This document shows, piece after piece, positions 5,934 to 50,620 of a stretch of 64,000 bases of DNA (positions are counted from its first letter, which is position 1; each line of letters opens with the position of its first letter). The position numbers and the translations under genes are program-made. The notes beneath the pieces were generated by a model. It saw only the letters and a program-made list of their open reading frames with translations, made no database searches and had not been told where the DNA came from. Source of the DNA: Mobula birostris (taxonomy: Eukaryota); NCBI RefSeq assembly GCF_030028105.1, contig NC_092375.1, positions 158,967,415-159,031,414 on the forward strand, in the 5' to 3' direction.

Positions 5934-6886
5934 TGTGATGGTATTGGGTTTGTTGACAAAAGTTCTAAACTCAAGTGAAGACATTAAGCCCTATCTGATA
6001 TTGATAGCTACAGGTACCCTCACTAAACAGAGTTTATATTGTAACTACCCAATCTTCAAAGCCTAGTTCACTTCATGGTAAGTTTTACTGCTAATACCCA
6101 CTAGTTGAATGGTGGGCCAGCACCCACTACGAAAGAGGAGGTGCTTCCAGATAACAAAGTCACTTAAACAGGGTTCATTTATTTTCAGTGGTACACATTT
6201 AAATCCAAACAACATTCTTAAAACATTTTAAAACTCACAAAGGATTTATATCTTATAAAAGATTTCCAAATTACATACCATTTCTAAAATATAAAGGAAA
6301 TCCAAGACACCGGTACAATTCCTATAAAAGTTAAGAAGGCATTCCAATAAATTTTTACCGCAGAAATCAAAGGCAGAGGAATGGATTCCAATTCACCGTG
6401 TCTCTGTCATTCTTCCTGATGTTTCTGGACTATTCTTAAAATGCCTGGACTGCTCTCTTCACTTATACTGTTTCTCTGCCACTTGGTTGACTCCACACAT
6501 ATGACATCAGATACCTTTTAATACAAGAGTTCTCAAACCTTCTGGAGACAGAAGTCCCAGGTGCCCACAATAAATACTGCAAAGCTAACTTCCTGAGCAC
6601 AGAAACCTTCCCACTATTAATAGATTAGCTATTTGATATACTAAGCGATAATATTAGTCTGGTCTGCAAACTTCCTTGAACTAACCAAATAGGCCAATGT
6701 TGTCTGTTTTGAAATGATTCATTGTCTTGCACTGCACCTCTTGAGCAATAAGCCCAGGTGCTGTGGGCCAGCAATTCTGTGGCTCTAGAGACAGTGGGTT
6801 TGCCGCAAAGCTGTCTTTTCAACTTCAAAATGATTACTGCTTGGCCACTTACACGAAGAACTGAAAACTGGCTCCCATTTATGTAT
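5934..6886 (-). repeat. 3' LTR of the foamy-like ERV
   Basis: Starts TGTGATGGTATTG on the + strand, as does 15137. Collinear similarity for ~950 bp. Minus-strand AATAAA (~6178-6183) and TATTAAAA (~6516-6523). The U3 boundary is uncertain. Confidence 0.85.
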
Positions 6887-6957
6887 TACTGTCTTGAGTA
6901 AGGATTAGTAATCTCACATTTCAGTTATAGAAAATTATATTCATCAATTAACTGCTT

Positions 6958-7221
6958 TCACAATATAAAAATAATCTGTACAAAGAAAGTGAAATATTTA
7001 TGGAGATAATCTGTCTCTTTATACTGAATGTAGTAAGATAAGGAAAGGCACAGTTCTCCTATTGAGGATTCTGTCTGTATTTTTAATTTTGAATGCCCAG
7101 AAAAAGATGACAGAACATTGGAGTTGGTTATGTTCTCTTTACATTGGAGAGAACACCCACTGGTATGCTGTAGCTTAGCATTTTGATACCAACCATACCA
7201 TCTGTATAAGTTTCTTGCCAT
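6958..7221 (-). CDS. Possible second accessory ORF of the ERV (87 aa, unknown)
   Basis: ATG-started open frame just upstream of the 3' LTR, in viral sense. No recognised homology. Confidence 0.3.
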   Translation of the reverse strand: MARNLYRWYGWYQNAKLQHTSGCSLQCKENITNSNVLSSFSGHSKLKIQTESSIGELCLSLSYYIQYKETDYLHKYFTFFVQIIFIL

Positions 7222-7264
7222 TTTCTAGTCTCTGGGTATAATCATCCAGCTCTTCCCTCTCTTT

Positions 7265-7820
7265 ATTAAGGACTGGGCCGAAATGAGGAGATTTGATATA
7301 TCTTCCCAACTTCCGTGTTTTCCCAGAGGGCTACTCAGTGTGTTCTGTCAGACCATGGGATTTTATCAATCAAGTATACAAACTGTTCTTGTAGTATTAA
7401 GTCTAACACAAATAGCAGTATTGATAGGCCCTACTCGTAGTGTTGTAGACGTATCACATATACAATATATGCCTATACCCAAATTGAAAGTGAAACACCA
7501 TCAAATAGTTTTACTCTACTCTGTGACAATATAATGCTTTTTAGGCCTTAGGAGCACTAGGATTACATTGCAATTTCCAAAGAAATCGTAACAGAATAAG
7601 TAAAAATGTTAACAAGAATATAGCATTTCCTAGGGTAGCTATCTTTCTGCTCCTGGTAAGACTTTTACCACTATATAACACAATACATAAGATAGAGTAA
7701 GAAAGTAAAAGTGCAAACCACAATAGTATAAACCATCATTAGTAGTGAGCAACATATTTACAAAGAACATCATATAAAGTCTAAACAACCATATAATATA
7801 AGTTAGAAAGTAAATATGTA
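7265..7820 (-). pseudogene. Putative viral accessory ORF, multi-pass membrane protein (frameshifted)
   Basis: Lies between env and the 3' LTR. Consecutive hydrophobic segments: YFLTYIIWLFRLYMMFFVNMLL, WFILLWFALLLSYSILCIVLY, NAIFLLTFLLILLRFLW, and GLSILLFVLDLIL further on. Confidence 0.5.
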
Positions 7821-8045
7821 CTGGAGGTGTTTTTGCCAACACTGTCTGACTGTGGACTTCCTGTCAAGAACAGGAATCCAGTTACAGAGTGAGGTGCTGA
7901 GACCCATTGAGGGCAGTTTATCGAGCAACGCACACAAAGTACTGCAGAAACTCAGCAGGCCAGGCAGCATCGATGAAAAAGAGTACAGTCGACGTAACGG
8001 GCTGAAGTTACCCACCAGCTTCTGAGGGATGATCGTATTAAAAGA
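7820..8045 (-). mobile_element. Internal Rex1 RT fragment with a nested Penelope-terminus fragment (~7925-8005)
   Basis: FNTIIPQKLVG / MGLSTSLCNWI / GSPQSDSVGKNTSST. The nested piece reads CACACAAAGTACTGCAGAAACTCAGCAGGCCAGGCAGCATC. Confidence 0.75.
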
Positions 8046-8049
8046 TTTT

Positions 8050-9860
8050 GAACAACTTTTGTCATGAAATCTCTATCTTCCGAGTGAACCAAAGGACCAC
8101 ATCAATGCTATTATGAGGGAGATCACTATCAAGGCAGGGCTGTACAGGCAGATTTACTCCAATATTTTTTTTAAAATCATGAAAATTGTTAAGGGCAAAA
8201 TTGAATGACTATTACCACCTGTTGACAGTAACATCATGCAATTGAAGACATAGCAAAATGAAGATTTGTCTGTGTGTGTACAGATTGCCTAATTTGAATT
8301 AGTATTATCAGTGCTATCCCAAAATTTAGCATTATCAAATAGTCTGTAAGAGTAAAAATTGTTATAGCTTTATTTCCTGTTTTCCGAGTTGTTGTTGAAA
8401 CCTATTGGAAATATAATTGGATTCGTAAGGACGCCAACAGTTCAGAAATAATCTTCATTATAAAGTATTATTTGCACCATGGCACAAAAGGTTCATGATT
8501 CTTTGATAAAAGGCAAGTAGGAAATGAGGGTAGATACAATCGTCTATTGGACTAAAATCTCTAAAAAGCTTATTGAAATTTATCAGTTTCAGTTTCAAGG
8601 ATGAAAACATTTTTGCTTTATCTTACCTTTTGCTTCAGTGCCTCTTTCCATGTCATCTTCAAGGGCTTCACTGAACCACATAGAAAATAAACCAGAAAAT
8701 TGTCATGTTACCTTAACATTTAACAATGGAGTGGCCATAGTTGGAATAATGGAAATGTTTAAATTCTTTGTGGTAGGTACAGAATGTTCATATATTTTTG
8801 ATCATAAAAGGGGAAGTACAATGTGGTATCAGTCTAATGTAGTAGAGTCTTCATTAAAAAATGGTTTTACACAGTCTTCTAGTCCAATGGTTTTAATGTC
8901 ATGTTTCCATGAGTGGGATCATTCAATGCCATAACAGTATCTATATTTTCCTCAAGTGTACAGGGATCCACATCAATCTATTCTCCTATTAGCTTAACTT
9001 CAATATCTGGACTAGAAACTTTCAGTTTTGTTAGGGTGTTATTAATCATTCTCGCAACTCATTCTTAGTCATGTATCATGTATCAATGATCATTCTGTCT
9101 GCAACATGGTCAGAGTGAATGTTTAAGTGGATGAGAACAATAACTGCCAGAGGGAAGTTTTAAGGGTTCCAGTTTTTTTTTTGCATATGACTAAGGACAT
9201 TTGATGATACTTAAATGAGAATTGTCATTGCTCGCAGAGCTTCTTAATCTAATATTCCCCGAATCATTAAGATTAGGAGTGTGAAAGACAGATGATACAA
9301 TTTCCATACTAAATGTGACTTCATCTACTAAAAAGCCAGTGGTAAGTAAGGCAGCACTGACTAACATTGTTATAAGCACAAATATTAAAAGTAAAGAGCA
9401 AGAGCAACATTTCTTTCGAGAGTTTGAGAGTTTAATTCTTTCTTTGTAATCAAAAAACATATAGAGTCATAGGGTCATAGAAAAGTACAGCACGGAAACA
9501 GGTCCTCCGCCCCATCTAATCCATGCCGAGCCACTTAAACTGCCTAATCCCGTCAACCTGCACGAGGACTATAGCTCTCCATACCCCTACCATGTACCTA
9601 TCCAAACTTCTCTTAAATGTTGAAAACAAGCTCACATGCACATTTTGCATATGTTATCCCTGGGTAATATATCAATGAGATCTTCCTCAAGTGAACAGGA
9701 AATTTTGAGTTAGCTTTCTTTTTCACTAAACATGAGTTTTATCTTTGCAATACATTTCACCCCCACGTTCCTTCAGGGTATAGGAGTTCCATGGCAGACC
9801 CATGTACTGGTCCAATATAAGAGTTCCAGTGAGTCTGGAAATAAATCCTGTTGGACCAGG
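8050..9860 (-). pseudogene. env: Foamy-type env remnant (leader peptide and SU; TM not found)
   Basis: ORF 9191-9460 has a basic/Cys stretch, a long hydrophobic domain (SLLLIFVLITMLVSAALL) and a degenerate furin-like IRLRS. Downstream KTSLWQLLFSS resembles RVLGLSQILMINS, and KYRYCYGIE..SW..LEDCVKP resembles EFANCYLVK..PW..ADQCPLP. Confidence 0.72.
9463..9647 (-). mobile_element. Short CR1 3' end inserted in env
   Basis: GTCATAG repeat tail. CATAT duplicated at 9458-9462 and 9648-9652. Confidence 0.8.
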
Positions 9861-10010
9861 TGTGGTGTTAGCTATGGAGACAGTTTTACTTACAGCCTTA
9901 CTTCCCCTTCTGGTCCCGATTACCACAGTCCTATCATTGATAACCTGAGTGATGAGACAAGGAGGTGGGCGTGATGGGAGATTTCTAATTTCCTCAATAT
10001 TGATTGGCAT
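9860..10010 (-). pseudogene. Integrase C-terminal domain, separated from the core by a CR1 insertion
   Basis: PCLITQVINDRTVVIG..KTVSIANTTP vs PFV PSTVLKVLNPRTVVILD..RTVSIDNLKP. Confidence 0.85.
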
Positions 10011-12272
10011 CTCCCTAGGGCAAGGGGTTTAGAAGGAGTGAAATTTGTTAGATGTGTTCAGGAAGGTTTCCTGACACAATATGTGCATTAGCCTACAAGA
10101 AGAGAGGATGTACTTGACTGGTATTGGGAAATGAACCTGGTCAGGTGTCAGGTCTCTCAGTGGGAGAGCATTTTGGAGATAGTGATCACAATTCTATCTC
10201 CTTTACCATAGCACTGGAAAGGGATAGGAGCAGACAAGTTAGGAAAATGTTTAATTGGAGTAAAGGGAAATATGAAGCTATCAGGCAGGAACTTGGAAGT
10301 AAAAATTGGGAGCAGATGTTCTCAGGGAAATGTATGGCAGAAATGTGGCAAATATTCTCGGAATATTTGTGTGGCGTTCTGCATAGGTACTTTCCAATGA
10401 GACAGGGAAAGGATGGTAGGGTACAGGAATCATGGTGTACAAAGGCTGTTGAAAATCTAGTCTAGGAGTAAAGAAAAGCTCACGAAAGGTTCAAAAAAAT
10501 AGGTAATGATAGAGATCTAGAAAATTATAGGGCTAGCAGGAAGGAGCTTAAGAATGAAATTAGGAGAGCCAGAAGGGGCCATGAGAAGGCCTTGGTGAGC
10601 AGGATTAAGGAAAACCCCAAAGGATTCTACAAGTATGTGAAGAGCAAGAGAATGAGACCTGAGAGAATAGAACCAATCAAGTGTGACAGTGGAAATGTGT
10701 GTATGGAACCGGAAGAAGTAGCGCAGGTACTTAATGAACAAGGTACTTTGCTTCAGTATTCACTAGGGAAAAGGAACTTGGCAATTGTAGGGATGACTTA
10801 CAGCGGACTGAAAAGCTTGAGTACATAGACATTAAGAAAGAGGATATGCTGGAGCTATTGGAAAGCATCAAGTTGGATAAGTCACCGGGACTGGACGAGA
10901 TATACCCCAAGCTATTGTGGGAGATTGATGTGCCTCTGGCAATGATCTTTGCATCATTAATGGGGACAGGTTCCGGTGGATTGGAGAGTTGCAGGTGTTG
11001 TCTCTTATTTGAGCAAGGGAGTAAAGATAGCCCAGTGAGTCTTACTTCAGTGGTTGAGAATGTGACTAAACACATTGATAAAACTGGAGCAGTAGATGTA
11101 GTGTGTATGGATTTCAGCAAGGCATTTGATAAGGTACCCCATGCAAGGCTTATTGAGAAAGTAAGGAGGCATGGAATCTAAGGGGACCTTGCTTTGTGGA
11201 TCCAGAATTAGCTTGCCCACAGAAAACAAAGCGTGGTTGTAGACAGGTCATATTCTCATGGAGGTGGGTGATCAGTGGTGTGCCTCAGGGATCTGTTCTG
11301 GGACACCTACTCTTTATGATTTTTATAAATGACCTGGATGAAGAAGTGGAGGAATGGGTTAGTAAATTTGCTGATGACACAAAGGTTGTAGGTGTTGTGG
11401 ATAGTGTGGAGAGCTGTCAGAGGTTACAGCAGGACATTGATAGGATGCAAAACTAGGCTGAGAAGTGGCAGATGGAGTTCAATCCAGATAGGTGTGAGGT
11501 GATTCATTTTGGTAGGTCAAATATGATGGCAGAATATAGTATTAATGGTAAGACTCTTGGCAGTGTGGAGGATCAGAGGGATCTTGGAGCCCGAGTCCAT
11601 AGGAAACTCAAAGCTGTTGCGCAGATTCACTGTGTTGTTAAGAAAGCATATGTTATATTGGCCTTCATCATTCATGGGATTGAGTTCAAGAGCCAAGAGG
11701 TAATGTTGCAGCTATATAGGACCCTGCTCAGACCCCACTTGGAGTACTGTGCTGAGTTCTGGTCACCTCACTACAGGAAGGATGTGGAAACGATGGAAAG
11801 CATGCAGAGGGGTTTTACAAGGATATTGCCTGGATTGGGGAGCATGCCTTCTGAGAATATGTTGACTGAACTTGGCCTTTTCTCCTTGGAGCGGTGGAGG
11901 ATGAGAGGTGACCTGACTGAGGTGTGTAAGATGATGAGAGGCATTGATCATGTGGATAGTCAGAGGCTTTTTCCCAGGACTGAAATGGCTAACACTAGCT
12001 GCTTAGTTTTAAGGTGCTTGGAAGTAGGTACAGTGGAGATGTCAGGGGTAAGTTTTTTATGCAGAGAGTGGTGAGTGTGTGGAATGGGCTGCCGGCGACA
12101 GTGGTGGAGGCGGATACAATAGGGTCTTTTAGGAACTCTTGGATAGGAACATGGAGCTTAGAAAAATAGAGGGCTATGGGTAACCCCAGGTACTTCTAAA
12201 GTAAGTATATGTTGGGCACAGCATTGTTGGCCAAAGTGCCTGTATTATGCTGTAGGTCTTCTAAGTTTCTAT
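10011..12272 (+). mobile_element. CR1 LINE, 5'-truncated and internally deleted, inserted in the viral integrase
   Basis: GDSDHN (endonuclease), [35 protein letters not shown], and a 3' tail. Confidence 0.95.
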
Positions 12273-12279
12273 AGAAACT

Positions 12280-13300
12280 AGAGTCACATTTATTTTTATG
12301 AAATTTCTTTTCTTGGGCTCAGTCCCCATTTTGTAGTATCTAAACTTTCTTGTCAGGTTCGTTGTCATTGTCTTGCTTTCTCTTTATTCCCATAAACTCT
12401 CAATTCCTTGAAGAGAGCTGTATCAGGTGTAGGTGATATTTGGCCTGAGCAAGTGATCAGTGATGTATTTAGGTGGAAACTATACATTAAGAAATAAGGC
12501 ATAACATTTTTGTATACGGTTTTTTTGAAAATGGCACTTTGTTTGGTGACAGTTGCACTTTAGGGCCAGCTTTCAGCATCCAGAGTAGACCAATCTTGCT
12601 AGGCCTCCTTAATCTCTCTCGATTCCTTTGCTCCAGGATGCTACTCAATTGGGGTTTTAATGGAGTGCTGTACCCCTCTTGTATGCCTGTTTGTTCACAC
12701 ATGGATTGAGAGTCTTTAACCTCAGTTGGCATGTATACAGGTGGGACTATAGAGTTTTAGAGTGCTGTGACGGATGCAGCCTCACTACAAGCAGTTGCGG
12801 AGACTAACCAGGTATGTATATCCTGCACAAAGCTCAACTATCGGGAGAATATACTTATTAGGCTTTAAATAAGGTAGGTTGCCTTGGTATGCCAAAAATG
12901 AGATCTATATAATCAACTTGCCACACCTACATTGAAGCAGTTGATTTTGTTTGTCTCATAGGAGGTGATGTTGTCACTGCTCCTTTCTTATAGGCCAAAC
13001 ATTGTTTACAATTTGCAATGAAGCACTTACAATCATTCAACATGTAAGACCACCAGCATAACATGGCTAATTTCACATGAGTGGCTCATCTGCCACCATG
13101 ATCGTGCCTAAGTCCTCAGTGAGCTTCTCAGATCAGTGCTTTGTGCTTGTGGGCAAGAGGTATTTGCTTCTTGTCGTTTTTAGGGTGGCAAACCCAAACC
13201 TTATCTTCACCATCAGCTTCATATGTGTATCATGTTGGAAATCCTTTGGAATTGAGTTTAGTTACATCTAGGAAAATTCTTAAAACGTCATTCTGGTTAT
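12280..13300 (-). pseudogene. Foamy-like integrase (N-terminal extension, HHCC, core)
   Basis: YTYEADGEDKVWV..IP..HKALI*EAH..HGGR*AT..LCWWSYMLND..NCKQCL vs PFV YTYFLEDGKVKV..IP..RQKIVLQAH..HTGREAT..LYWWPNMRKD..RCQQCL. GIQEGYSTPLKPQLSSILEQRN vs [22 protein letters not shown]. Confidence 0.9.
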
Positions 13301-13339
13301 TTTTTATTTGTTGCTTAGTTACTACCAAAACTCTGACCT

Positions 13340-14830
13340 CCCTTACTGAAGTAAGGTCCATCCTGACAGCTTGTTTTGCTTATTCATCAGCTAATTATTG
13401 CTATAGCTGTATAAGTAGCCTGCAGTATGCCCTGGGGTGTGCAACGCCTGTACTAATGGTTGTCAGTAAAAATTCATAAATATTCTTCCACGTGGACAAG
13501 TGTGGAAGCAGTTTACCGAAGCAAAGGAAGAGATTTTCTTAGGTCTCTTGTCTAGGGATCTATTGCTTGCTGAACTGCATTCATCAATGTCACCAGGTCC
13601 TCATAATCTTCTCGGGTATAAACAAAAAGCTATTAATTTTTCAGCGTACATCTGCTGTATAATGTTTTGGCAATTCAGCATAGTTAGATTTGAAAGCTGT
13701 ACCATAACTCAATATGTTTAGCTTTGACTGCAAAGCATTTAGGGTCTTTGGATATCTTACTTGAGTGACTTTTTGTCTCAATTTAGTGTTAAACCACATC
13801 CCTAATTGATAATCATCATCCTTGATTGAAATGTACTTCTATACGACAGAGTTAGTTGAGATGTTCTGTTGTTGATTACATAACCTTCGTCTGTCAACCT
13901 TTTAACGATAGTCTCAATCTGTGTTAAATACTCATCCAGTGTGTTGGCTGTGAAGCATGCACCATCAACACATGCACAAATATCTGGTACTCCCTGTAGA
14001 GGCTGAATGACTCCAGCAGAAAATAGTTGTGGACTATTCCAAAAAAATTGTGGGAGTCTGCTCAACTGATGTCATGAGTCATTGGGTTCTGTAAAGGCTG
14101 TGTAATATCTATCACTTTCAAGAGGTACTGTCGGTGTGACCAGAAGTCATTGGCCAGACTCAGGGAAGACTTATATACTATACAAGTTAATCCTTGCAGC
14201 ATTTTTTTATAACGTCCGTTTCTGGGCTGAACTGGGTTCTGTGCGTTCATCCAGGACGATGTAATAGATGACCAATCATCATCCATCAGGATTTGCTACG
14301 CTGAACATGTGTGAGTTAAATCAAGAAGGGTCTTTTACCAAAATACCTTGTTTACAAAGGGAGTTTACAGTTTCCTGTAGGGATTGCTTTCTGGCCTGGG
14401 AAAGTATTGGATCCTAATTTAATCTGTTCTACGGCAACAATCCTACAGTAGTTAGGATGTTATAGGTCATCATAATACTGTACAAAATATGTTTCAGTTT
14501 TATTCTTATCATTTATCCTGATAATAGTTTAGCCATTTTTGAATATGTATGTCCTACACAATGCTGTTGCATTGGCTGTTTGATAGCAATACGAATCTAA
14601 CAGCAAGTGCTGATTTATTATGATCTACGGCAATCTAGTCTATGAATACTTCCATTCTTTGCTGTACGGGATCTTTATAAGTTGGGCACTCTACCTCGTT
14701 TCCATACATGCATCCATTTTAAATTTTCCCTGTCAGGCCCCCCTAATTTATCTCCTTGAATAATATCAGAATTTAACATTGAAATATCTGCTGCTGTACG
14801 AAAACAGCAGGGTCATAGAGCAGGGCTTGG
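13340..14830 (-). pseudogene. pol: Foamy-like pro-RT-(partial RNase H) pseudogene
   Basis: Protease remnant RTAADISML (DTGA-like). NSLCKQGIL..NSHMFSVANPDG vs PFV DDLLKQGVL..NTPVYPVPKPDG. YKSSLSLANDFWSH vs YKTTLDLANGFWAH. SRLPQFFWNSPQLFSAGV..CVDG vs TRLPQGFLNSPALFTADV..YVDD. YPKTLNALQS vs PPKDLKQLQS. RNase H C-terminus WKNIYEFL..LADE*AKQ. Confidence 0.9.
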
Positions 14831-15116
14831 TCTCTCTAGTCTGCATCCTATTCTATTTTCTATCCCTTCATCATTACTTGAAAAATAAAATATCCATCAT
14901 GTTCAATTTGAGGAGCAGTGAGGTGTTATCTCATATTTCTGCCGTACTATTAACATATTCAAGATATTGACTAACACTTGCCTGCACAACTATTGGAAGC
15001 AAGATGTCAGCTGTTCTGTAGCAGTAAGTGCAGGGCCATAGCACTTGTCAAGAGCATTCTGAATTGGACTACTGTTAAATAATAATTGTTCCTAAAATAA
15101 TACTTTTCGTATAACG

Positions 15117-15134
15117 TGACCACGTCAGCAGCCA
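15117..15134 (-). promoter_or_regulatory. Primer binding site, degenerate tRNA-Lys1,2-like
   Basis: TGGCTGCTGACGTGGTCA lies 2 nt after the LTR. It matches TGGCGCCCAACGTGGGGC at 11 of 18 positions, with the same TGGC-N5-ACGTGG spacing. Confidence 0.6.
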
Positions 15135-15136
15135 AC

Positions 15137-16076
15137 TGTGATGGTATTGTGTTTGCTTACCGCAAAAGTTCAAAATTCAAAAACAAAGACCTTAAACCTT
15201 ATCTGATATAGACAGCTGTGTACCCTCACTAAAACTACCCAATCTACAAAGACTAGCTCCTGTTTATCCTCCCTGATGAGGTTAGCTGCCAATAGCCACT
15301 ATTTGAGCAGTGGGACTCCAATCCCTACCATGGAGGAGATACTTCAGTCTACAAGAAGGTTTAAACACAGTCCATTTATTTTCATTGGTACATTTTTAAA
15401 ACACATTTGAAACTCACAGAGGATTTCTATCTTGTAAAAAAATACCAAATTACAAACCATTTCTAAAACAAAAAGGAATTCCAAAGCACAGTTACAATTA
15501 CTGTAAGCTAAGAAGACACATCAGCAAATTCCTCACTGAAATCAAAGACAGAGGAATGGATTCTAATTTGCCCTGTGTTTCTGTCATTTTTCTTGATGTT
15601 TCTTGATCATTCCACAAAGTCTGAACTGCTCTCGTTATTTATGCTGTTTCTCTTGGTTGACTTCAGACCTATGTAATATATATTTTTCAGATACCTTTCA
15701 ATACAAGTGCTACGAAAGCTTCTGGAGACAGAGTACCCAGGTACCTACCATTATTGCTGTGAAGCTGACTCCCTGAGCACACAAATCGTCCAATTAGTAA
15801 CTGATCAACTATTTGATATGTGCAGTGATAATATCTATATGGCCTGCAACCTGGCTTGAACTAAACTTAGCCAGCATTGCTTGTTCTGAAAAAAGCTGAA
15901 TTACATAAATCATTGTCTTACACTACACCTGTGAGCAATAACCCCAGGTGCTGTTGCCCAACAAGTCTGAGGCTCTACAGACAATGTGTCTGTTTGCGAA
16001 GCTGTCCTTTCAATTTCAACCTGTTTATTGCTTGCTATTTGCTCGGAGAACTAAACACTGGCTGTGGTTTATGACA
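15137..16076 (-). repeat. 5' LTR of the foamy-like ERV
   Basis: Termini TGTGATGG...TTATGACA. Paralog of 5934-6886. Abuts the PBS. Confidence 0.85.
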
Positions 16077-17034
16077 AGAAGCTAAACAATGAGTATTGTT
16101 TGGAAGTTTAACTTATTGAAAAACTGGCTTTTATAAGTGTCACCTGTTGTTATGTTTAGAAAGAAGAGCATTGCAAAAAAGAAAGAGACCTCTTGGCCCT
16201 ATGTAGTAACTATTCCAACAGAAGGTGACCATGATCATGAACTTTGATACATGTAGGTTCCTCTTGGAGCTGCAGGTCTTAATACGTGCCTGAGGCAGAA
16301 GAGATTCCCATCCCATGGCCTCCTGGTTTATGGGAATAGGTGGCAGATAAATATCGTGATGCTTTTATTCTGCAGCAGCTTGTGCCTGATATTCATCAGT
16401 AACTTGTTTATCATTTTTATACAGTACTCCTCAACACAGTCCTTTTTTTTTTGCTGAAACATGAATTTGAGAATGAAATTACTTATAGGCTTATAATGTG
16501 ATTGTTACCCAACTTGGTAATACCCTCTAAATTGAAATTGCTAAGTGCTTACAATTGTAGCATTATCATGAGATGGCACTCTTTACCCCATGTCAGCTGC
16601 AACTTCACAGCACAGACTATCAACCAACAACTTGGCTTACATCCTTTATGAACATATATTCACAGGTGGACAGTGTGCATGCCGCAAAATCTACACAAAA
16701 TCTGTCAAAGAAGTCTGTTGACATGATGAAACAATGTTTTCACTGTAGGGAAGCTCAGGAAGAACAGATCTTGGAGCAGTAAGGTTGAGATGTCTTACTT
16801 CCTACAATGCTCCGCAGCTTTCAAAGGTATTAAGATATAGCTGTCAGCACAATTCTTCAGTGAACAACTGAAGTAATGGAACATGAGGATGAGGAGAAGA
16901 AAGAGGGGGAAAAGTAAGCAGTCCCTTTCTGTCACGCTGTCACCTGAACCTGCTGTAGCAGGTATGGCCCATATCCCCATGAAAACAGAAGGCATGTAGA
17001 AATAAAACCTACCACAAATTAAATCATTCTGAAC

Positions 17035-28034: not shown

Positions 28035-31000
28035 TTTCAGAGTTAGACTGCAACCAATCAGCAGAAGCATGAAAAGAGAGCTACCTTTTCATTTAGGTTC
28101 ACAATCAAAATTAAAAAGGCTGCATTTCATGGCAGTTTATTGGAATTGGACTGCGACCAATCACTGAGCAGGAGCATAAGAACAGAACTACATTTTCACT
28201 TAGGTTTGCAATGAATATTAAAAAGGTAGCGCTTCGGTGTTGGACAGCGACCAATCACAGAGTGGGATTCATCAGAAAGAGCAAATAAAATAAGCCAGCT
28301 GCAAGTGCACCATCTCGGATTGCAAGACCCTGCAGCGGATAGTGAGGTCAGCTGAGAAGATCATCGGGGTCTCTCTTCCCGCCATTACAGACATTTACAC
28401 CACACGCTGCATCCATAAAGCAAACAGCATTATGAAGGATCCCATGCACTCCTCATACAAACTCTTCTCCTTCCTGCCACCTGGCAAAAGGCACCGAAGT
28501 ATTCGGGCTCTCACGACCAGACTATGTAACAGTTTCTTCCCCCAGGTCATCAGACTCCTCAATACCCAGAGCCTGGTCTGACACCAACCTACTGCTCTCT
28601 ACTGTGCCTATTGTCTTGTTTATTATTTATTGTAATGCCTGCACTGTTTTGTGCACTTTATGCAGTCCTGGGTAGGTCTGTAGTCTAGTGTAGTTTTGTG
28701 TTGTTTTATGAAGTTCAGTGTAGTTTTTGTATTGTTCATGTAGGACCATGGTCCTGAAAAACATTGTCTCATTTTTACTGTGTACTGTACCAGCAGTTAT
28801 AGTTGAAATGACAATAAAAAATGACTTGACTTGACTTGAAGTGGAGTGGCTATTGTTGTGAGTGGTCCAGTGGTGGAGTGGTTTTGGCATACACAAGATC
28901 ACGGTTGGGTGAGGTAAGTATCTGGTAAGTTTCTTTTTTTTCCTCTTTATTCTTCATTGTCTGTTAGGGCACTGTTAGTCCAGTGAAAATGGCTCCGGGG
29001 TAGTGTTTTGTTCTGTGTGTGAGAGATAGGAATTCTAGAAGATAGAGACACACAAATGATATGTAGCCTCCCAGGTACCAGGGTGAGGGTTGGGTCCATG
29101 GCATTCTAAAGGGGGAGGGTAAGCAGCTGGAGGTCTTAGTACATATTGGCACCAACAACATAGATAGAAAAGGTGAGGAGGTCCTGCAGAGCAATTTTAT
29201 GGAGCTAGGTAGAAAGCTGAGAAAAAGGACCTCCAGGGTAGAAATCTCTGGATTTCTGCCCATGCCTCGCACCTGTGGGGGTAAGAATAGGAAGATTTGA
29301 CATTTGAATGTGTGGCTAAGGAACTGGTGCAGGGGCCAGGGGTTTAGATTTATGGATCATTGGGATCTCTTCTGGGGGAAAGAACAACCTGTACAAAGGG
29401 GAAAGTTTACACCTGACCCGAGGGGGACCAACATCCTTGTGGGCAAGTCTGTTACAGCTGTTCAGGAGGGGTTACATGCTTGGCAGGGGGATAGAAACTA
29501 AAGTGATAGTGATAGTACTGAAGATAAGATAAGTCAGTGTGTAGTGAGACTGCTAGCAAGGAGGGTCTGGTGATAGGGCAAAAATGCAGTAAACAGGGTG
29601 AGTTGCAATTTAAAAGGCGGACAAAATTGTTGGGGGTGAATACAGGACTGAAGGTATTATTTCGGAATGCATGCAGTGTATAGAATAAGGTAGGTGAATA
29701 TGTAGCACAGTTACAATTTGGCATGTATGATGTTATGGGCATCACTGAATCATAGCTGAAAGCAAATTAGAGCTGAGAACTTAACGCCCATGGATACACA
29801 TTGTACAAAAAGGATTGGCAGGTAGGCAGAGGGGGTGGCGTGGCTCTGTTGGTAAAAAAATGAAATCAAGTCATTAGAGAGAAGTGGCATAGGGTCAGAA
29901 GGTGTTGAATCATGGTGAGTAGACCTAAGGAACTTCAAGGGTGAATAAACCCTGATGGGAGTTATACACAGAACACCCCCCCAAAAAAAACAGTGGTAAA
30001 GATGTGGACTACAAATTACAAAAGGAGATAGAAAATGTATGTCAAAAGGACAATGTTATGATAGTCATAGGGGATTTCCATATGCAGGCAGATTAGAAAT
30101 ATTAGTTTGGTGATGGATCCCAAGAGGGGGAATTTCTAGAATGCTTACAAGGTGGCTTTTTAGAGCAGCTTGTGGTTGAGCTCACTAGGGGATCAGTTAT
30201 TCTGGACTAGATGTTGTGATATAAACCAGAAGTGGTTAAGGTAGAGAGCTTAAGGGAGAGGAACCCTTAGGGGTAATTATCAAATATGATCTGCAATTTG
30301 ATAAGGTGAAGTTAAAGTCAGATATATCAGTATTACAGTGAAGTAAAGGGAATTACAAAGGCAAAAGAGAGGAGCTGGTTAAAGATGATTGGAAGGGGAC
30401 ACTAGCAGGGATGATGACAGAGCAGCAATGGCTAGCGTTTCTGGGAGCAATTCAGAAGGCACAAGCTATATATATCCCAAAGGGGAAGAAGTATTCTTAA
30501 GGCAGGATGACACAAACGTGGCTAACAAGATAAGTCAAAACAAACATAAAAGCCAATGAGAGAGCATATAGTAGAGTAAAATTTAGTGAAAAGTTGGAGG
30601 ATTGGGAAGGTTTTACAGACCAACAGAAGGCAACTAAAAATGTCATAAGGAAGGAAAAGATGGAATATGAAGGCAAACTAGCAAATAATATTAAAGAGGA
30701 TACCAGAAGTTTCTTCAGATATATAAAATGTAAAAATGAGAGTAGATATCAGAGCACTGGGAAATGATGCTGGAGAGGTTGTAATGGGGACAAGGAAATG
30801 GCCAACTAACCAAATAGGTTTTTTGCATTAGTCTTCACTGTGGAAGATACTAGCAGTATGCTGGAGCTTCGAGAGTGTCAGGGTTCAAAAGTATGTGAAG
30901 TTGCGATTACTATTAAGAAGGTTCTTGGGAAACTGAAAGGTCTAAAGTTAGATAAGGTTATACACTGAAGGGTTTTGAAAGAGGTGGCTGAAGAGATTGT

Positions 31001-32115
31001 AGAAGCATTAGTAATGATGTTTCCAGAATCAATTGATTCTAGCATCATTCCAGAGGACTGGAAAATTGTAAATGTCACTCCACTCTTGAAGAAGGAAGAG
31101 AGGCAGAATATTAGAAATTATAGGCCAGTTAGTCCGACCTCAGTGCTTTGGAAGATGTTGGAGTCAATTGTTAAGGATGTGGTTTCGGGGTATTTGGAGG
31201 CACATGATAAAATAGGCTGTAGTCGGCATGGTTTCCTCAAGGGGAAATCTTGCCTGACAAATCTGTTGGAATTCTTTGAAGAAATAACAAACAGTATAGA
31301 CAAAGGAAAATCAGTGGATGTTGTGTACTTGGATTTTCAGAAGGTCTTTGACAAGGTGCCACACATGAGGCTGCTTAACAAGTTAAGAGCCCATGGAATT
31401 CCATGGAAGATATTAGCATGGATAGGGCATTGGCTGATTGGCAGGAGGCAAATATTTGGAACAAAGGGAGCCTTTTCTGATTGGCTGCCATGTTCTCCAG
31501 GAGTCTGTGCTAGGACTGCTTCTAGACATTAGAAGAATGAGCAAAGAAGTGGCCAATGGAATACAGCTCAGTATTTTGAGCAGTTTTGGGCCGCTTATCT
31601 AAGGAAGTATGTTTTCTCACATTGGAAGGGGTTCAAAGGGGGTTCAGGAAAACGATTCCAGGATTGAAAGGCTTGTCATATGAGAAATGTTCAATGACTC
31701 TGGGCCTCAACTCACTGGAATTCAGAAGAATGAGTGGTGACCTTATTGAAACCTATCAAATGTTGAAAGGCCTAGAAGAATTAATTTGGAGAGCATGTTT
31801 CTTATGGTGGGGCTGTTTAAGACCAGAGGACACAGCCTCAGAATAGAAGGGTGTCCTTTTAGAACAGAGATGAGGAGGAATTTCATTAACTACCAAATAG
31901 TGAATCTGTGGAATTTGCCACAGGTGGCTGTGGAAGCAAAGTCATTGGGTATATTTAAGGCAGAGGTTGACGGTTGCTTGATGAGTCAGGGTATGAAGGA
32001 CTATGGAGAGAGGACAGGAGATACAGGCTGAGAGGTAAAATGGATCAGCCATGATGAAATGACAGAGCAGACTCGATGGACCAAATGGCGAAATTCTGTT
32101 TCTATATCTTTTGGC
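28035..32115 (+). mobile_element. Near-full-length decayed CR1 (5'UTR, ORF1 esterase remnant, ORF2 EN-RT, tail)
   Basis: VHIGTNN and NVWLRNWCRGQGFRFMDHWDLFWG (ORF1). GGGVAL, NYRPVS, SCLTNLLEFFEE, DFQKVFDKVPH (ORF2). Internal deletions. Confidence 0.9.
28308..28838 (+). mobile_element. Rex1 3' end nested in the CR1 5'UTR
   Basis: SAEKIIG..KDPMH..LPPGKRHRS..NSFFPQVIRLLN. (GACTT)n tail. Possible AAGTG TSD. Confidence 0.88.
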
Positions 32116-34737: not shown

Positions 34738-35795
34738 TAGACCATAAGACCATAAGACAAAGGAGCAGAAGTAGGCCATTCGGCCCATCGAGTCTGCTCC
34801 GCCATTTTGTCATGAGCTGATCGATTTTATCCTATTTAGTCCCACTGCCCCACCTTCTCACCATAACCTTTGATGCCCTGGCTACTCAGATACCTGTCAA
34901 TCTCTGCCTTAAAGACACCCAATGACTTGGCCTCCACTGCTGCCCATGGCAACAAGTTCCATAGATTCACCACCCTCTGACTAAAAAAATTTTTTTGCAT
35001 TTCTGTTCTGAAAGGGCGCCCTTCAATCCTGAAGTCATGCCCTTTCGTACTAGACTCCCCCATCATGGGAAACAACTTTGCCACATCCACTCTGTCCATG
35101 CCTTTTAACATTCAAAATGTTTCTATGAGGTCTCCCCTCATTCTTCTAAACTCCAAGGAATACAGTCCAAGAGCGGACAAATGTTCCTTATATGTTAACC
35201 CTCTCATTCCTGGAATCATTCTAGTGAATCTTCTCTGTACCCTCTCCAACGTCAGCACATCCTTTCTTAAATAAGGAGACCAAAACTGCCCATAGTACTC
35301 CAAGTGAGGTCTCATCAGCGCCTTACAGAGCCTCAACATCACATTCCTGCTCCTATACTCTATTCCTCTAGAAATGAATGCCAACATTGCATTCGCCTTC
35401 TTCACTACCGACTCAACCTGGAGGTTAACTTTAAGGGAATCCTGTACGAGGACTCCCAAGTCCCGTTGCATCTCCGAACTTTGAATTCTTTCCCCATTTA
35501 AATAATAGTCTGCCCGTTTATTTTTTCTGCCAAAGTGCATAACCATACACTTTCCAACATTGTACTTCATTTGCCACTTCTCTGCCCATTCTTCCAATCT
35601 ATCCAAGACTCTCTGCAGACTCTTCATTTCCTCAGCACTACCAGCCCCTCCACCTATCTTCGTATCATCAGCAAACTTAGCCACAAAGCCATCTATTCCA
35701 TAATCCAAATCGTTGATGTACAATGTAAAAAGAAGCGGCCCCAACACTGATCCCTGTGGGGTACCTCTGGTAACCGGCAGCCAACCAGAATAGGA
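34738..35795 (-). mobile_element. Young CR1 3' fragment
   Basis: 211-aa open RT C-terminus (35112-35747). GACCATAA octamer tail. Confidence 0.95.
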
Positions 35796-48014: not shown

Positions 48015-50620
48015 ATTGGAAGGGCAACCAGGTAGACAGAGGGAGAGGCATGGCGCCGCTAGTAAAAGTTGAAAGCAAATCATTAGAGAGAGGTGATATT
48101 GAATCAGAAGGTGTAGAATCATTATGGGTAGAGCTAACAAGCTAAAAAGTTAAAAAGACCCTGATGGGATTTATATACAGACCTCAAAACAGTAGTAAAG
48201 ATTACAAATTACAATGGGAGATAGAAAATGCATGTCAAAAGTGCAATGTTACTATAGTCGTGGGGTTTTCAATATGCAGTAGATTGGGAAAATCAGTTTG
48301 GTGCTGGATCCCTGGGTGGGGAGTTTGTAGAATGCCAGAGCTGGCTTTTTGGAGCAGCTCACCGCAGAGCCCATGAAGGAAACAACTATTCTGGACTGGG
48401 TGTTGTGCAATAAACCCCGCTTTGATTAAAGGTAAAACCAGTGATCATAATATGATAGAATTCATCTTGCAATTTGAGAAGAAGAAGAAGCTAAAGTCAG
48501 AGGTTAAAGTGGAGTGAATTACAGAGACGTGAGAGAGGAGCTGGCCAAAATTGTTTGGAAAGAAACACTAGCAGAGATGACGGCAGAGTGGCAATGGCTG
48601 GAGTGTTTGGAATCAATTGGAATGATGCAAGATAGATACGTCCCAAGGAAGAAATAGTATTCTGAAGGCCGGATGATGCAACCGTGACTGACAAAAGAAG
48701 CCAAAGCCAACATTAAAATCAAAGAGAGTGTGTATAATAGAACAGAAATTAGTAGGAAGTTAGAGGATTGGGAACATTTTAAGAACCAACAGAAGGCAAC
48801 TCAAAAAGCCATAAAGAGGGAAAAGATGAAATACAAAGGAAAGCTAATCAATAATATTGAAGAGGATACAAAAAGTTTCTTCAGATAGATAAAGTGGAAA
48901 AAAGAGTTGAGAGCAGATATCAGGACATTGGAAAACTATGGTGGAGAGGTAGTAATGGCAGACAACTAATTAAGTTTACTGGATGTTCAAGAGTGGCAGG
49001 GGGCAGAAGAGTGTGAAGTTGCCATTACTAGGGAGAAAGTGCTCGGGAAATTGAAAGGTCTGAAGGTAGGTAAATCACCTGGACAGATGGTATACACCCT
49101 ACGGTTCTGAAAGAGGTGGCGAAAGAGACAGTGGAGCTATTAGTAATGATTCTGGCATGCTTCCAGAAGACTGGAAAAGTGAAAATGTCATTCCACTCTT
49201 CAATAAGGGAGAAAGGCAGAAGAAAATAAATTATGGGCCATTTAGTTTAACCTCAGTGACTGGGGAGATGCTGGAGTCGATTGGTAAGGATGTGGTTTTG
49301 GGAACTTGGAGGCACATGGCGACATAGGTCAAAGTCAGCATGGATTCCTAAGAGAAAAATCTTGCCTGAAAAATCTGTTTAAATTCTTTGAGGAAATAAC
49401 AAGCGAGATAGACAAAGGAGAATCACTGGATGTTAGGAAGTTGGATTTTCAGAAGGCCTTTGACAAGGTGCCACACATGAGGCTGCTTAACAAGTTAAGA
49501 CCTCATGATATTATAGTAAAGATACTAGCATTGATGGAGCATTGGCTGATTGACAGGAGACAAAGAGTATGAATAAAGGAGGCCTTTTCTGGTTGGCTGC
49601 TGATAACTAGTGATGTTCCACAGGGGTCTGTGTTGGGACTGTTTCCTTTTACTTTATATGTCAGTGATTCAGATGATGGAATCGACGGCTTTGTGGCCAA
49701 GCTTGTAGACAATATGCAGTGGCAGGTAGTGTTGAGGATGCAGAGAGATTACAGCAGGGCTTAGATTAAGAGAATGGCCAAAGTGCAGATGGAATACAGT
49801 GTTGGGAAGTGAATGGTCATGCACTTTGGCAGAAGAAAATAAATCATTGCCTATTTTCTAAATGGTGAGAAAATTCAAAAATCTGAATTGCAAAGGGACT
49901 TGGGATTCTCATGCAGGATTCCTTAAAGGTTAATTTGCAGGTTGAGTCTGTGGTGAGGAAGGCAAATACAATGTCAGTATGCATTTGAAAAGGACTAGAA
50001 TATATTAACAAAGATGTAATATTGTGACGTTATAAGGCACAGGTGAGGCCTCACTTGGAGTACTGGGAGCAGTTTCAGGCCCCCTATAAAAGAAAGGGTG
50101 TGCCGACATTGGAGAGGGTTCAAAGAAGTTTCATGAAAATTATCCCGGTATTGACAGGCTTATCATATGAGGTGCATTTGATGGCTCTGGGCCTGTACTC
50201 ATTGTAATTCAGGAGAATGTGGGGGGATCCCATTGAAACCTGTTGAATGTTGAAAGGCCTCAATGGAGTGGATGTGGAAAAGAAGTTTTCTATTGTGTGG
50301 GAGTCTAAGTCCAGAGGATACAGACTCAGGATAGAGGGACATCCATTTCAAATGAAGATGAGGAGGTATTACTTTAGTCAGAGAGTAGCGAACCTGTGGA
50401 ATTTGTTGCCATGAGTGGTGGCGGAGGCCAAGTCATATGGGTATTCTTAAAGCAGAAGTTGATAGATTCTTGATTAGTCAGGGCATGAAGGGATACGGGG
50501 ATAATGCTGGAGATTGGGGCTGAGAAGGAATGGATCAGCCACGAGGAAATAGCAGAGCAGACTTGATGGACCGAAAGGCCTAATTCTGTTCCTCAGTCTT
50601 ATAGTTTTATGGACTTATGA
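48015..50620 (+). mobile_element. Decayed CR1 ORF2 and tail
   Basis: IYRPQNS, SQHGF..SCLKNLFKFFEE, DFQKAFDKVPH. Confidence 0.92.

Follow-up and report, generated by a model that had tools for sequence, protein, structure and literature searches.

A probable accessory coding region of membrane-protein type, now decayed, downstream of env in an old foamy-like provirus of Mobula birostris

We analysed a 64,000-nucleotide stretch of Mobula birostris DNA (the window; contig NC_092375.1, positions 158,967,415 to 159,031,414) and in it the minus-strand segment at 7265..7820, which a first-pass annotation had described as a multi-pass membrane accessory gene in the tas/bet position of a foamy-like endogenous retrovirus (ERV). 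The stop-poor frame and the coded hydrophobicity of the segment agree with the core of that description. We read the segment as the decayed remains of a probable accessory coding region that belonged to an ancient foamy-like retrovirus and that most likely contained two overlapping genes for predicted membrane proteins; our confidence in this complete reading is moderate. That the region was coding and of membrane type seems to us highly probable. The segment lies after the env stop, its frame is stop-poor in the manner of pol and env, its hydrophobicity is coded, and it is decayed in every copy examined.

Results

The provirus and its copies

The provirus occupies the first 16 kb of the window and runs on the minus strand, as do the features below unless otherwise stated. 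Its 5' LTR lies at 15135..16185, with a start that is apparently clipped in this copy. The 3' LTR, at 5934..6883, ends in CA and has lost about 700 nt (the PPT and the LTR start) at 6883/6899. The two LTR-like repeats, 15137-16063 and 5934-6873, are 71% identical. Directly after the end of the 5' LTR there is a stretch resembling a primer-binding site (15117..15133), possibly of the tRNA-Lys type, and in at least 7 copies a decayed site beginning with TGG comes after the LTR. A decayed foamy-like pol spans 9750..14800, both ends being approximate, and is split by a plus-strand LINE, presumably CR1-like, at 9967..12270. A piece of pol near RNase H, about 700 nt long, is absent at 13517/13528 in the window and retained in other copies. 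The decayed env remnant lies at 8047..9700 (approximate start), with a hydrophobic leader segment in the ORF 9191-9466. It is followed by a junction at 7821..8046, where about 930 nt of family sequence have been lost, including the env anchor, the end of env and the start of the gene that we call gene A; within the junction lie part of a SINE (~7914-8005) and a LINE-like fragment.

The genome contains at least 150 decayed copies of this provirus. With 7820-6900 as query, all 40 scored candidates matched, among 3426 candidates in the 4.0 Gb genome, and a protein query of the accessory segment matched 150 of the 150 candidates scored. Thus the possibility that the segment is missing from other copies, which would have spoken against a viral gene, does not hold. 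Identity among the copies is about 76% when measured on core columns, and every examined copy is broken. No long open accessory copy was found among the 150 + 150 scored accessory candidates, and none for pol among 150 scored candidates. A search of the genome with PF03408 for a young or intact relative gave zero matches and is uninformative.

The distance from pol to the primer site is only about 300 nt in the window (14800-15117), and several other copies (L095, L101, L092) are alike in this, so that most of gag seems to be absent from a common sub-lineage. A gag-like piece matching Gag_FV_central at E 0.0035 is retained in another copy, L093. The pattern suggests that the gag-poor sub-lineage consisted of non-autonomous copies mobilised in trans. 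Elsewhere in the window, broken integrase-like frames at 1-915 on the plus strand belong to another LTR element, which we assume to be Gypsy-like and which is unrelated to the foamy-like provirus. Direct and inverted repeats at 29855-32011, 48064-50436 and 34856-35794 are 72-82% identical and are probably copies of a single old transposon family.

Foamy affinity

Judged from its sequence, the provirus is an old foamy-like (Spumaretrovirinae-related) ERV, as the first-pass annotation had assigned it. A pol piece from another copy matched the foamy PR-RT chains 7o0h and 7ksf with E values of 8e-20 to 2e-14 (compared by E value), while the same piece gave 1e-3 against Ty3 and 0.6 against RT p80 chains, which we take to be those of MLV. 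Three of nine env pieces matched PF03408 (Foamy_virus_ENV) at the same place of the profile, at E 0.005-0.03, which is below cut-off significance, and the E value of 0.0035 for the gag piece is likewise short of the cut-off. In several copies (e.g. L032, L137, L157), the PPT meets the 3' LTR in a purine tract that leads into GGGTG or a near variant, a border that the window copy no longer has. The LTR of the family is about 1.08 kb long. PMC5210030 names the GGGTG border and a long LTR as foamy-like features. In the space from env to the 3' LTR the family also carries what were probably accessory ORFs, as a foamy-like ERV should. In the 3' part of env, a TATA-like word occurs in 41-47% of copies about 600 nt before gene A, a frequency at the level expected of AT-rich DNA.

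Position and extent of the accessory region

The segment had been placed in viral sense between env (at or above 8047) and the 3' LTR (5934-6883). This order is kept elsewhere, as 22 of 29 other loci have env/pol upstream or the LTR downstream, colinear with the segment. In other copies, the env anchor and an env stop (common to 25 of 32 pieces) lie about 400 nt upstream of the segment and in a different frame. Both fall in the first gap of the window copy, so that the segment does lie beyond the end of env. That is, env ends just past its own anchor in another frame, and the segment is distinct from it, as had been claimed; identity with the env anchor or env tail is excluded on the same ground.

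A separate transposon inside the provirus was suspected at first, because matches began and ended at the segment edges. It was ruled out, since these edges result from deletions in the window copy, and elsewhere the segment is colinear with env and LTR.

The boundaries 7265..7820 proved too narrow: about 930 nt are lost upstream, and the coding signal runs to about 7000. The coding region begins about 105-115 codons upstream, in the stretch that is absent from the window copy together with the env anchor, and this stretch carries the first 2-3 hydrophobic segments. The roughly 500 nt before the PPT (L033 ~2300-2780; absent from the window at 6899/6883) showed no coding signal, being equalled by 91 of 500 shuffles.

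A stop-poor, probably coding frame

On a fixed column grid of 52 copies, shared stops were present in all three sense frames (14, 24 and 18). A coding reading therefore needs frame switches near 7800 and 7495. We set these switch points post hoc, at sites where the copies vary in length, and the pieces crossing them in frame were 16 of 39 (7800) and 7 of 48 (7495). Within the interval 7265..7820 itself, the chosen frame had shared stops at 3 of its 187 codons, where the two remaining frames had 17 and 12. A null that keeps local composition and allows the best frame for each segment gave 9.3, and none of 300 shuffles was as low as 3. The per-copy stop rates of the chosen frame in its three parts were 0.013, 0.029 and 0.024, compared with 0.020-0.023 for pol, 0.023-0.029 for env and mostly 0.057-0.11 for the off-frames. 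Along the two-switch path the off-frame rates were 0.057-0.086, with the exception of one overlapping frame in the tail.

We also asked how few breaks a reading of the 1155 aligned nt requires, using 73 pieces that reach from the env end to about 7000. The value was 6, against 13.9±2.2 in shuffled alignments (0/500) and 18 in antisense. The 110 upstream codons lost in the window had zero shared stops and needed no switch (1/500). For the interval alone, the free-switching break test was not significant (42/500), and this lenient test gave 9/500 and 21/500 on env controls. Pol showed a single nearly clean frame. Env showed a single stop-poor frame in which several stops recur across about 45-82% of copies and one frame shift is common to them, which indicates that env was probably decaying already in the source elements.

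Purifying selection was not detected: there was no third-position excess, and pN/pS was 0.58-0.77 in every frame, with pol and env included. This test had no power, because pol looks neutral too.

Hydrophobicity

At least three, perhaps five, membrane-length hydrophobic segments had been described. In the family frame, four hydropathy peaks of at least 1.4 occur within the interval (minus strand: 7795-7743, 7708-7668, 7635-7582 and 7424-7370), with a weaker one near 7500-7445, so that the description is confirmed. The mean Kyte-Doolittle (KD) value of the interval was 0.54, against 0.10±0.13 in within-codon shuffles (0/300), and that of the whole path was 0.62, against 0.28±0.11 when shuffled. 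The whole path has seven peaks, while 300 column shuffles and 300 within-codon shuffles gave five at most. Codon position 2 in the interval is enriched in T (0.43 vs 0.34 and 0.32, p=0.004). One off-frame also gives 3-5 peaks, meaning that T-richness contributes. Taken together with the stop rates, these values answer the objection that the hydrophobicity was only a by-product of T-rich DNA: the family frame is as stop-poor as pol and env, and the hydrophobicity goes beyond T-richness.

Probably two overlapping genes

The accessory region probably comprises two overlapping genes. Gene A, a decayed gene for a predicted multi-pass membrane protein, has its 3' half at 7475..7820, its 5' part of about 105-115 codons being lost from the window. 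The model has about 215 codons and six hydrophobic segments with short loops. Gene B, likewise decayed, lies at 7000..7500 (or this stretch is the C-terminal part of a single long gene); its model has about 165 codons, with 1-2 N-terminal hydrophobic segments followed by a hydrophilic tail of about 110 residues. Near 7495 most copies show two overlapping frames. Gene A ends at a stop near 7475 in 41 of 51 copies, and an ATG at 7500 opens gene B in 36 of 46 copies, directly after a shared stop; columns with such an ATG number 38 of 1567. Candidate starts of gene A are an in-frame ATG (17 of 36 pieces) and an upstream out-of-frame ATG in strong context (21 of 35). A stop at 7641, common to 35 of 53 pieces, may be original or inherited; if it is original, gene A had about 165 codons.

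A second stop-poor frame of about 93 codons with a hydrophobic end overlaps the tail of gene B at 6960..7268. Its stop rate is 0.027 (vs 0.024), and 16 of 32 copies have an ATG at 7221; the frame is a candidate for a third small ORF. We also considered a subfamily split marked by the 7495 variant and rejected it, as only 3 of 624 columns were diagnostic and identities were equal within and between the groups.

In the window copy, the hydrophobic stretches and frame breaks described on the minus strand are present where they had been reported. The family frame requires nine frame changes here: those of gene A are near 7729, 7704, 7633, 7508 and 7491, with stops at 7641 and 7543, and those of gene B near 7427, 7327, 7223 and 7137, with a stop at 7337. 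The string SGKSLTRSRK, quoted earlier as a short basic loop, is found at 7672-7643 on the minus strand, but as a loop it falls outside the family frame, which reads VKVLPGAER at this site; the window holds the quoted frame by accident. The 64-aa ORF at 7735-7541 is similarly a chimera of in-frame and out-of-frame parts.

Searches for relatives and folds

A profile of 271 positions from the N-terminal and middle parts gave no match at E<=0.001 in 1.84 billion representatives. No match to Pfam, including Tas/Bet, was obtained among 28 + 23 decayed fragments, and none to PDB sequences with decayed accessory fragments (best E 0.71). A word-index search with the profile of the C-terminal part, a search of the ESM Atlas with one 91-aa piece (best 0.76) and a search of metagenome contigs with one 79-aa piece detected no relative.

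The models for fold comparison were built from incomplete natural pieces in which stops were written as X. AlphaFold predicted a 170-aa piece of one natural copy, a short out-of-frame stretch included, to be all-helical (pLDDT 73, pTM 0.48), and a second partial model of 132 aa reached pLDDT 64. With these two partial models, Foldseek found nothing at E<=0.001 in PDB and BFVD. The best VIA-align score of the partial models was Z 6.6, for generic helical hairpins, which is background level.

Discussion

Alternative readings

Could the segment be a non-coding, T-rich 3' region, in which frame and helices are chance patterns stitched together by frame switches? The shared stops in all fixed frames and the interval break test (42/500) would fit such a region, as would the 3-5 peaks of one off-frame and the lack of a selection signal. 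Against them stand the 110 upstream codons without a shared stop or switch (1/500), stop rates equal to those of pol and env, and composition-keeping best-frame nulls that were exceeded in 300 of 300 runs. We regard the non-coding reading as largely refuted and very improbable. A captured host membrane gene (a receptor, transporter or similar) that later diverged would be compatible with either gene model, and six to seven helices at such a size are usual for cellular membrane proteins. The first-pass annotation had raised this origin; it is unsupported, as the decayed fragments and partial models yielded neither a sequence nor a fold relative. The blank results, above all the zero profile matches at E<=0.001 in 1.84 billion and the missing Pfam and PDB sequence matches, come from decayed-fragment queries, so that they make only a recent capture unlikely. 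We think host capture improbable overall.

The other origin raised, a viroporin-like protein, does not suit the models. Viroporins are small proteins, roughly under 120 aa, with 1-2 helices. Gene A, with about 215 codons and six segments, is too large, and gene B, with 1-2 segments, is modelled at about 165 codons.

The gene number itself is a closer question. The annotation had spoken of one accessory gene. A single long gene of about 380 codons would encode a 7-8 pass protein with a cytoplasmic tail, in a layout like that of a signalling receptor or LMP1, and the split at 7495 would have arisen in the main source lineage. The 7 of 48 pieces that cross 7495 in frame agree with it, and the natural copies L137, L155, L169 and L060 read through that point. 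Other frame-breaking length variants are shared by copies, so that the sources evidently tolerated breaks. Against a single gene, the 7495 junction sits in a slippage-prone run, the two-frame arrangement prevails among the copies and is kept by about half of those in the longer variant class, and an ATG is shared at the head of frame B. Two overlapping genes thus fit most copies better, and we judge a single gene unlikely.

Proposed function and decay

If two overlapping genes were present, A and B may have been expressed from a spliced or internal-promoter mRNA, like tas and bel2, to judge from position and analogy, and their products would have been located in the ER, the Golgi or the plasma membrane. 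A protein with six passes and short loops, together with an anchored partner bearing a cytoplasmic tail, fits a host-modulating scaffold better than a transactivator or viroporin. We tentatively propose a scaffold or adaptor that would bind, retain or reroute host membrane proteins, a guess that leaves out a transactivator and a simple channel and that we put forward with some doubt. Copying in the germ line presumably made env and the accessory genes dispensable; breaks would then have been acquired and inherited by many copies, with neutral decay afterwards.

In a broader form, these sequences could represent a basal foamy-like lineage with a polytopic (6-8 pass) accessory family that has no detectable relative. 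Such a family would add a third kind of product to the tas/bet slot. It may have been receptor-like in signalling or immune-modulating, and it may be intact in younger relatives in related fish. We regard the chances for and against this broader form as evenly balanced. The value of the finding is limited by its being a dead fossil, with no intact copy or relative and a function that is only predicted. A multi-pass accessory protein is nevertheless a specific target to seek in related genomes.

Comparison with known systems

In mammalian foamy viruses the frames of tas (bel1) and bel2/bet overlap, and the region described here resembles them in its genome position and in its two overlapping frames. 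Tas and Bet are soluble. A soluble product without membrane segments does not agree with the seven coded hydropathy peaks, and in contrast to Tas and Bet a membrane protein is predicted here, whose decayed fragments gave no Pfam match to either. HIV Vpu, HTLV-1 p12, JSRV orf-x and EBV LMP1 are membrane proteins encoded by viruses, and several of them modulate signalling or membrane proteins of the host. Their likeness to the present genes is a functional analogy without a sequence link, and in the fold search LMP1 scored no higher than background (Z 5.3, rank 28).

For the foamy-like viruses of fish and amphibians, accessory genes have been described only as ORFs that lack an explanation. In the open literature, taken as main texts apart from supplements (which could hold hydrophobic acc proteins), we found no multi-pass accessory protein described for a foamy-like virus. 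In these reports acc1a, acc1b and acc2 have 253, 251 and 234 aa and no known similarity (PMC5512871), the accessory genes of amphibian foamy-like viruses are without known relatives (bioRxiv 10.1101/2020.12.18.423569 and PMC12690878), and for a shark foamy-like lineage only pol is given as detected (PMC5512871). A reported tuatara accessory gene was an artefact according to PMC6669660, and the same caution therefore applies to our accessory reading.

The present region is like acc1/acc2 of AciFLERV/AliFLERV, ORF-3 to -5 of AcERV and DrFV-2 in having 1-3 orphan ORFs between env and the 3' LTR. It differs from the accessory ORFs of teleost foamy-like ERVs, in which no TM motif was detected according to PMC5210030: six plus 1-2 hydrophobic segments are predicted here, a difference drawn from the descriptions. 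A multi-pass product would mean that the tas/bet slot has been filled quite differently among foamy-like lineages.
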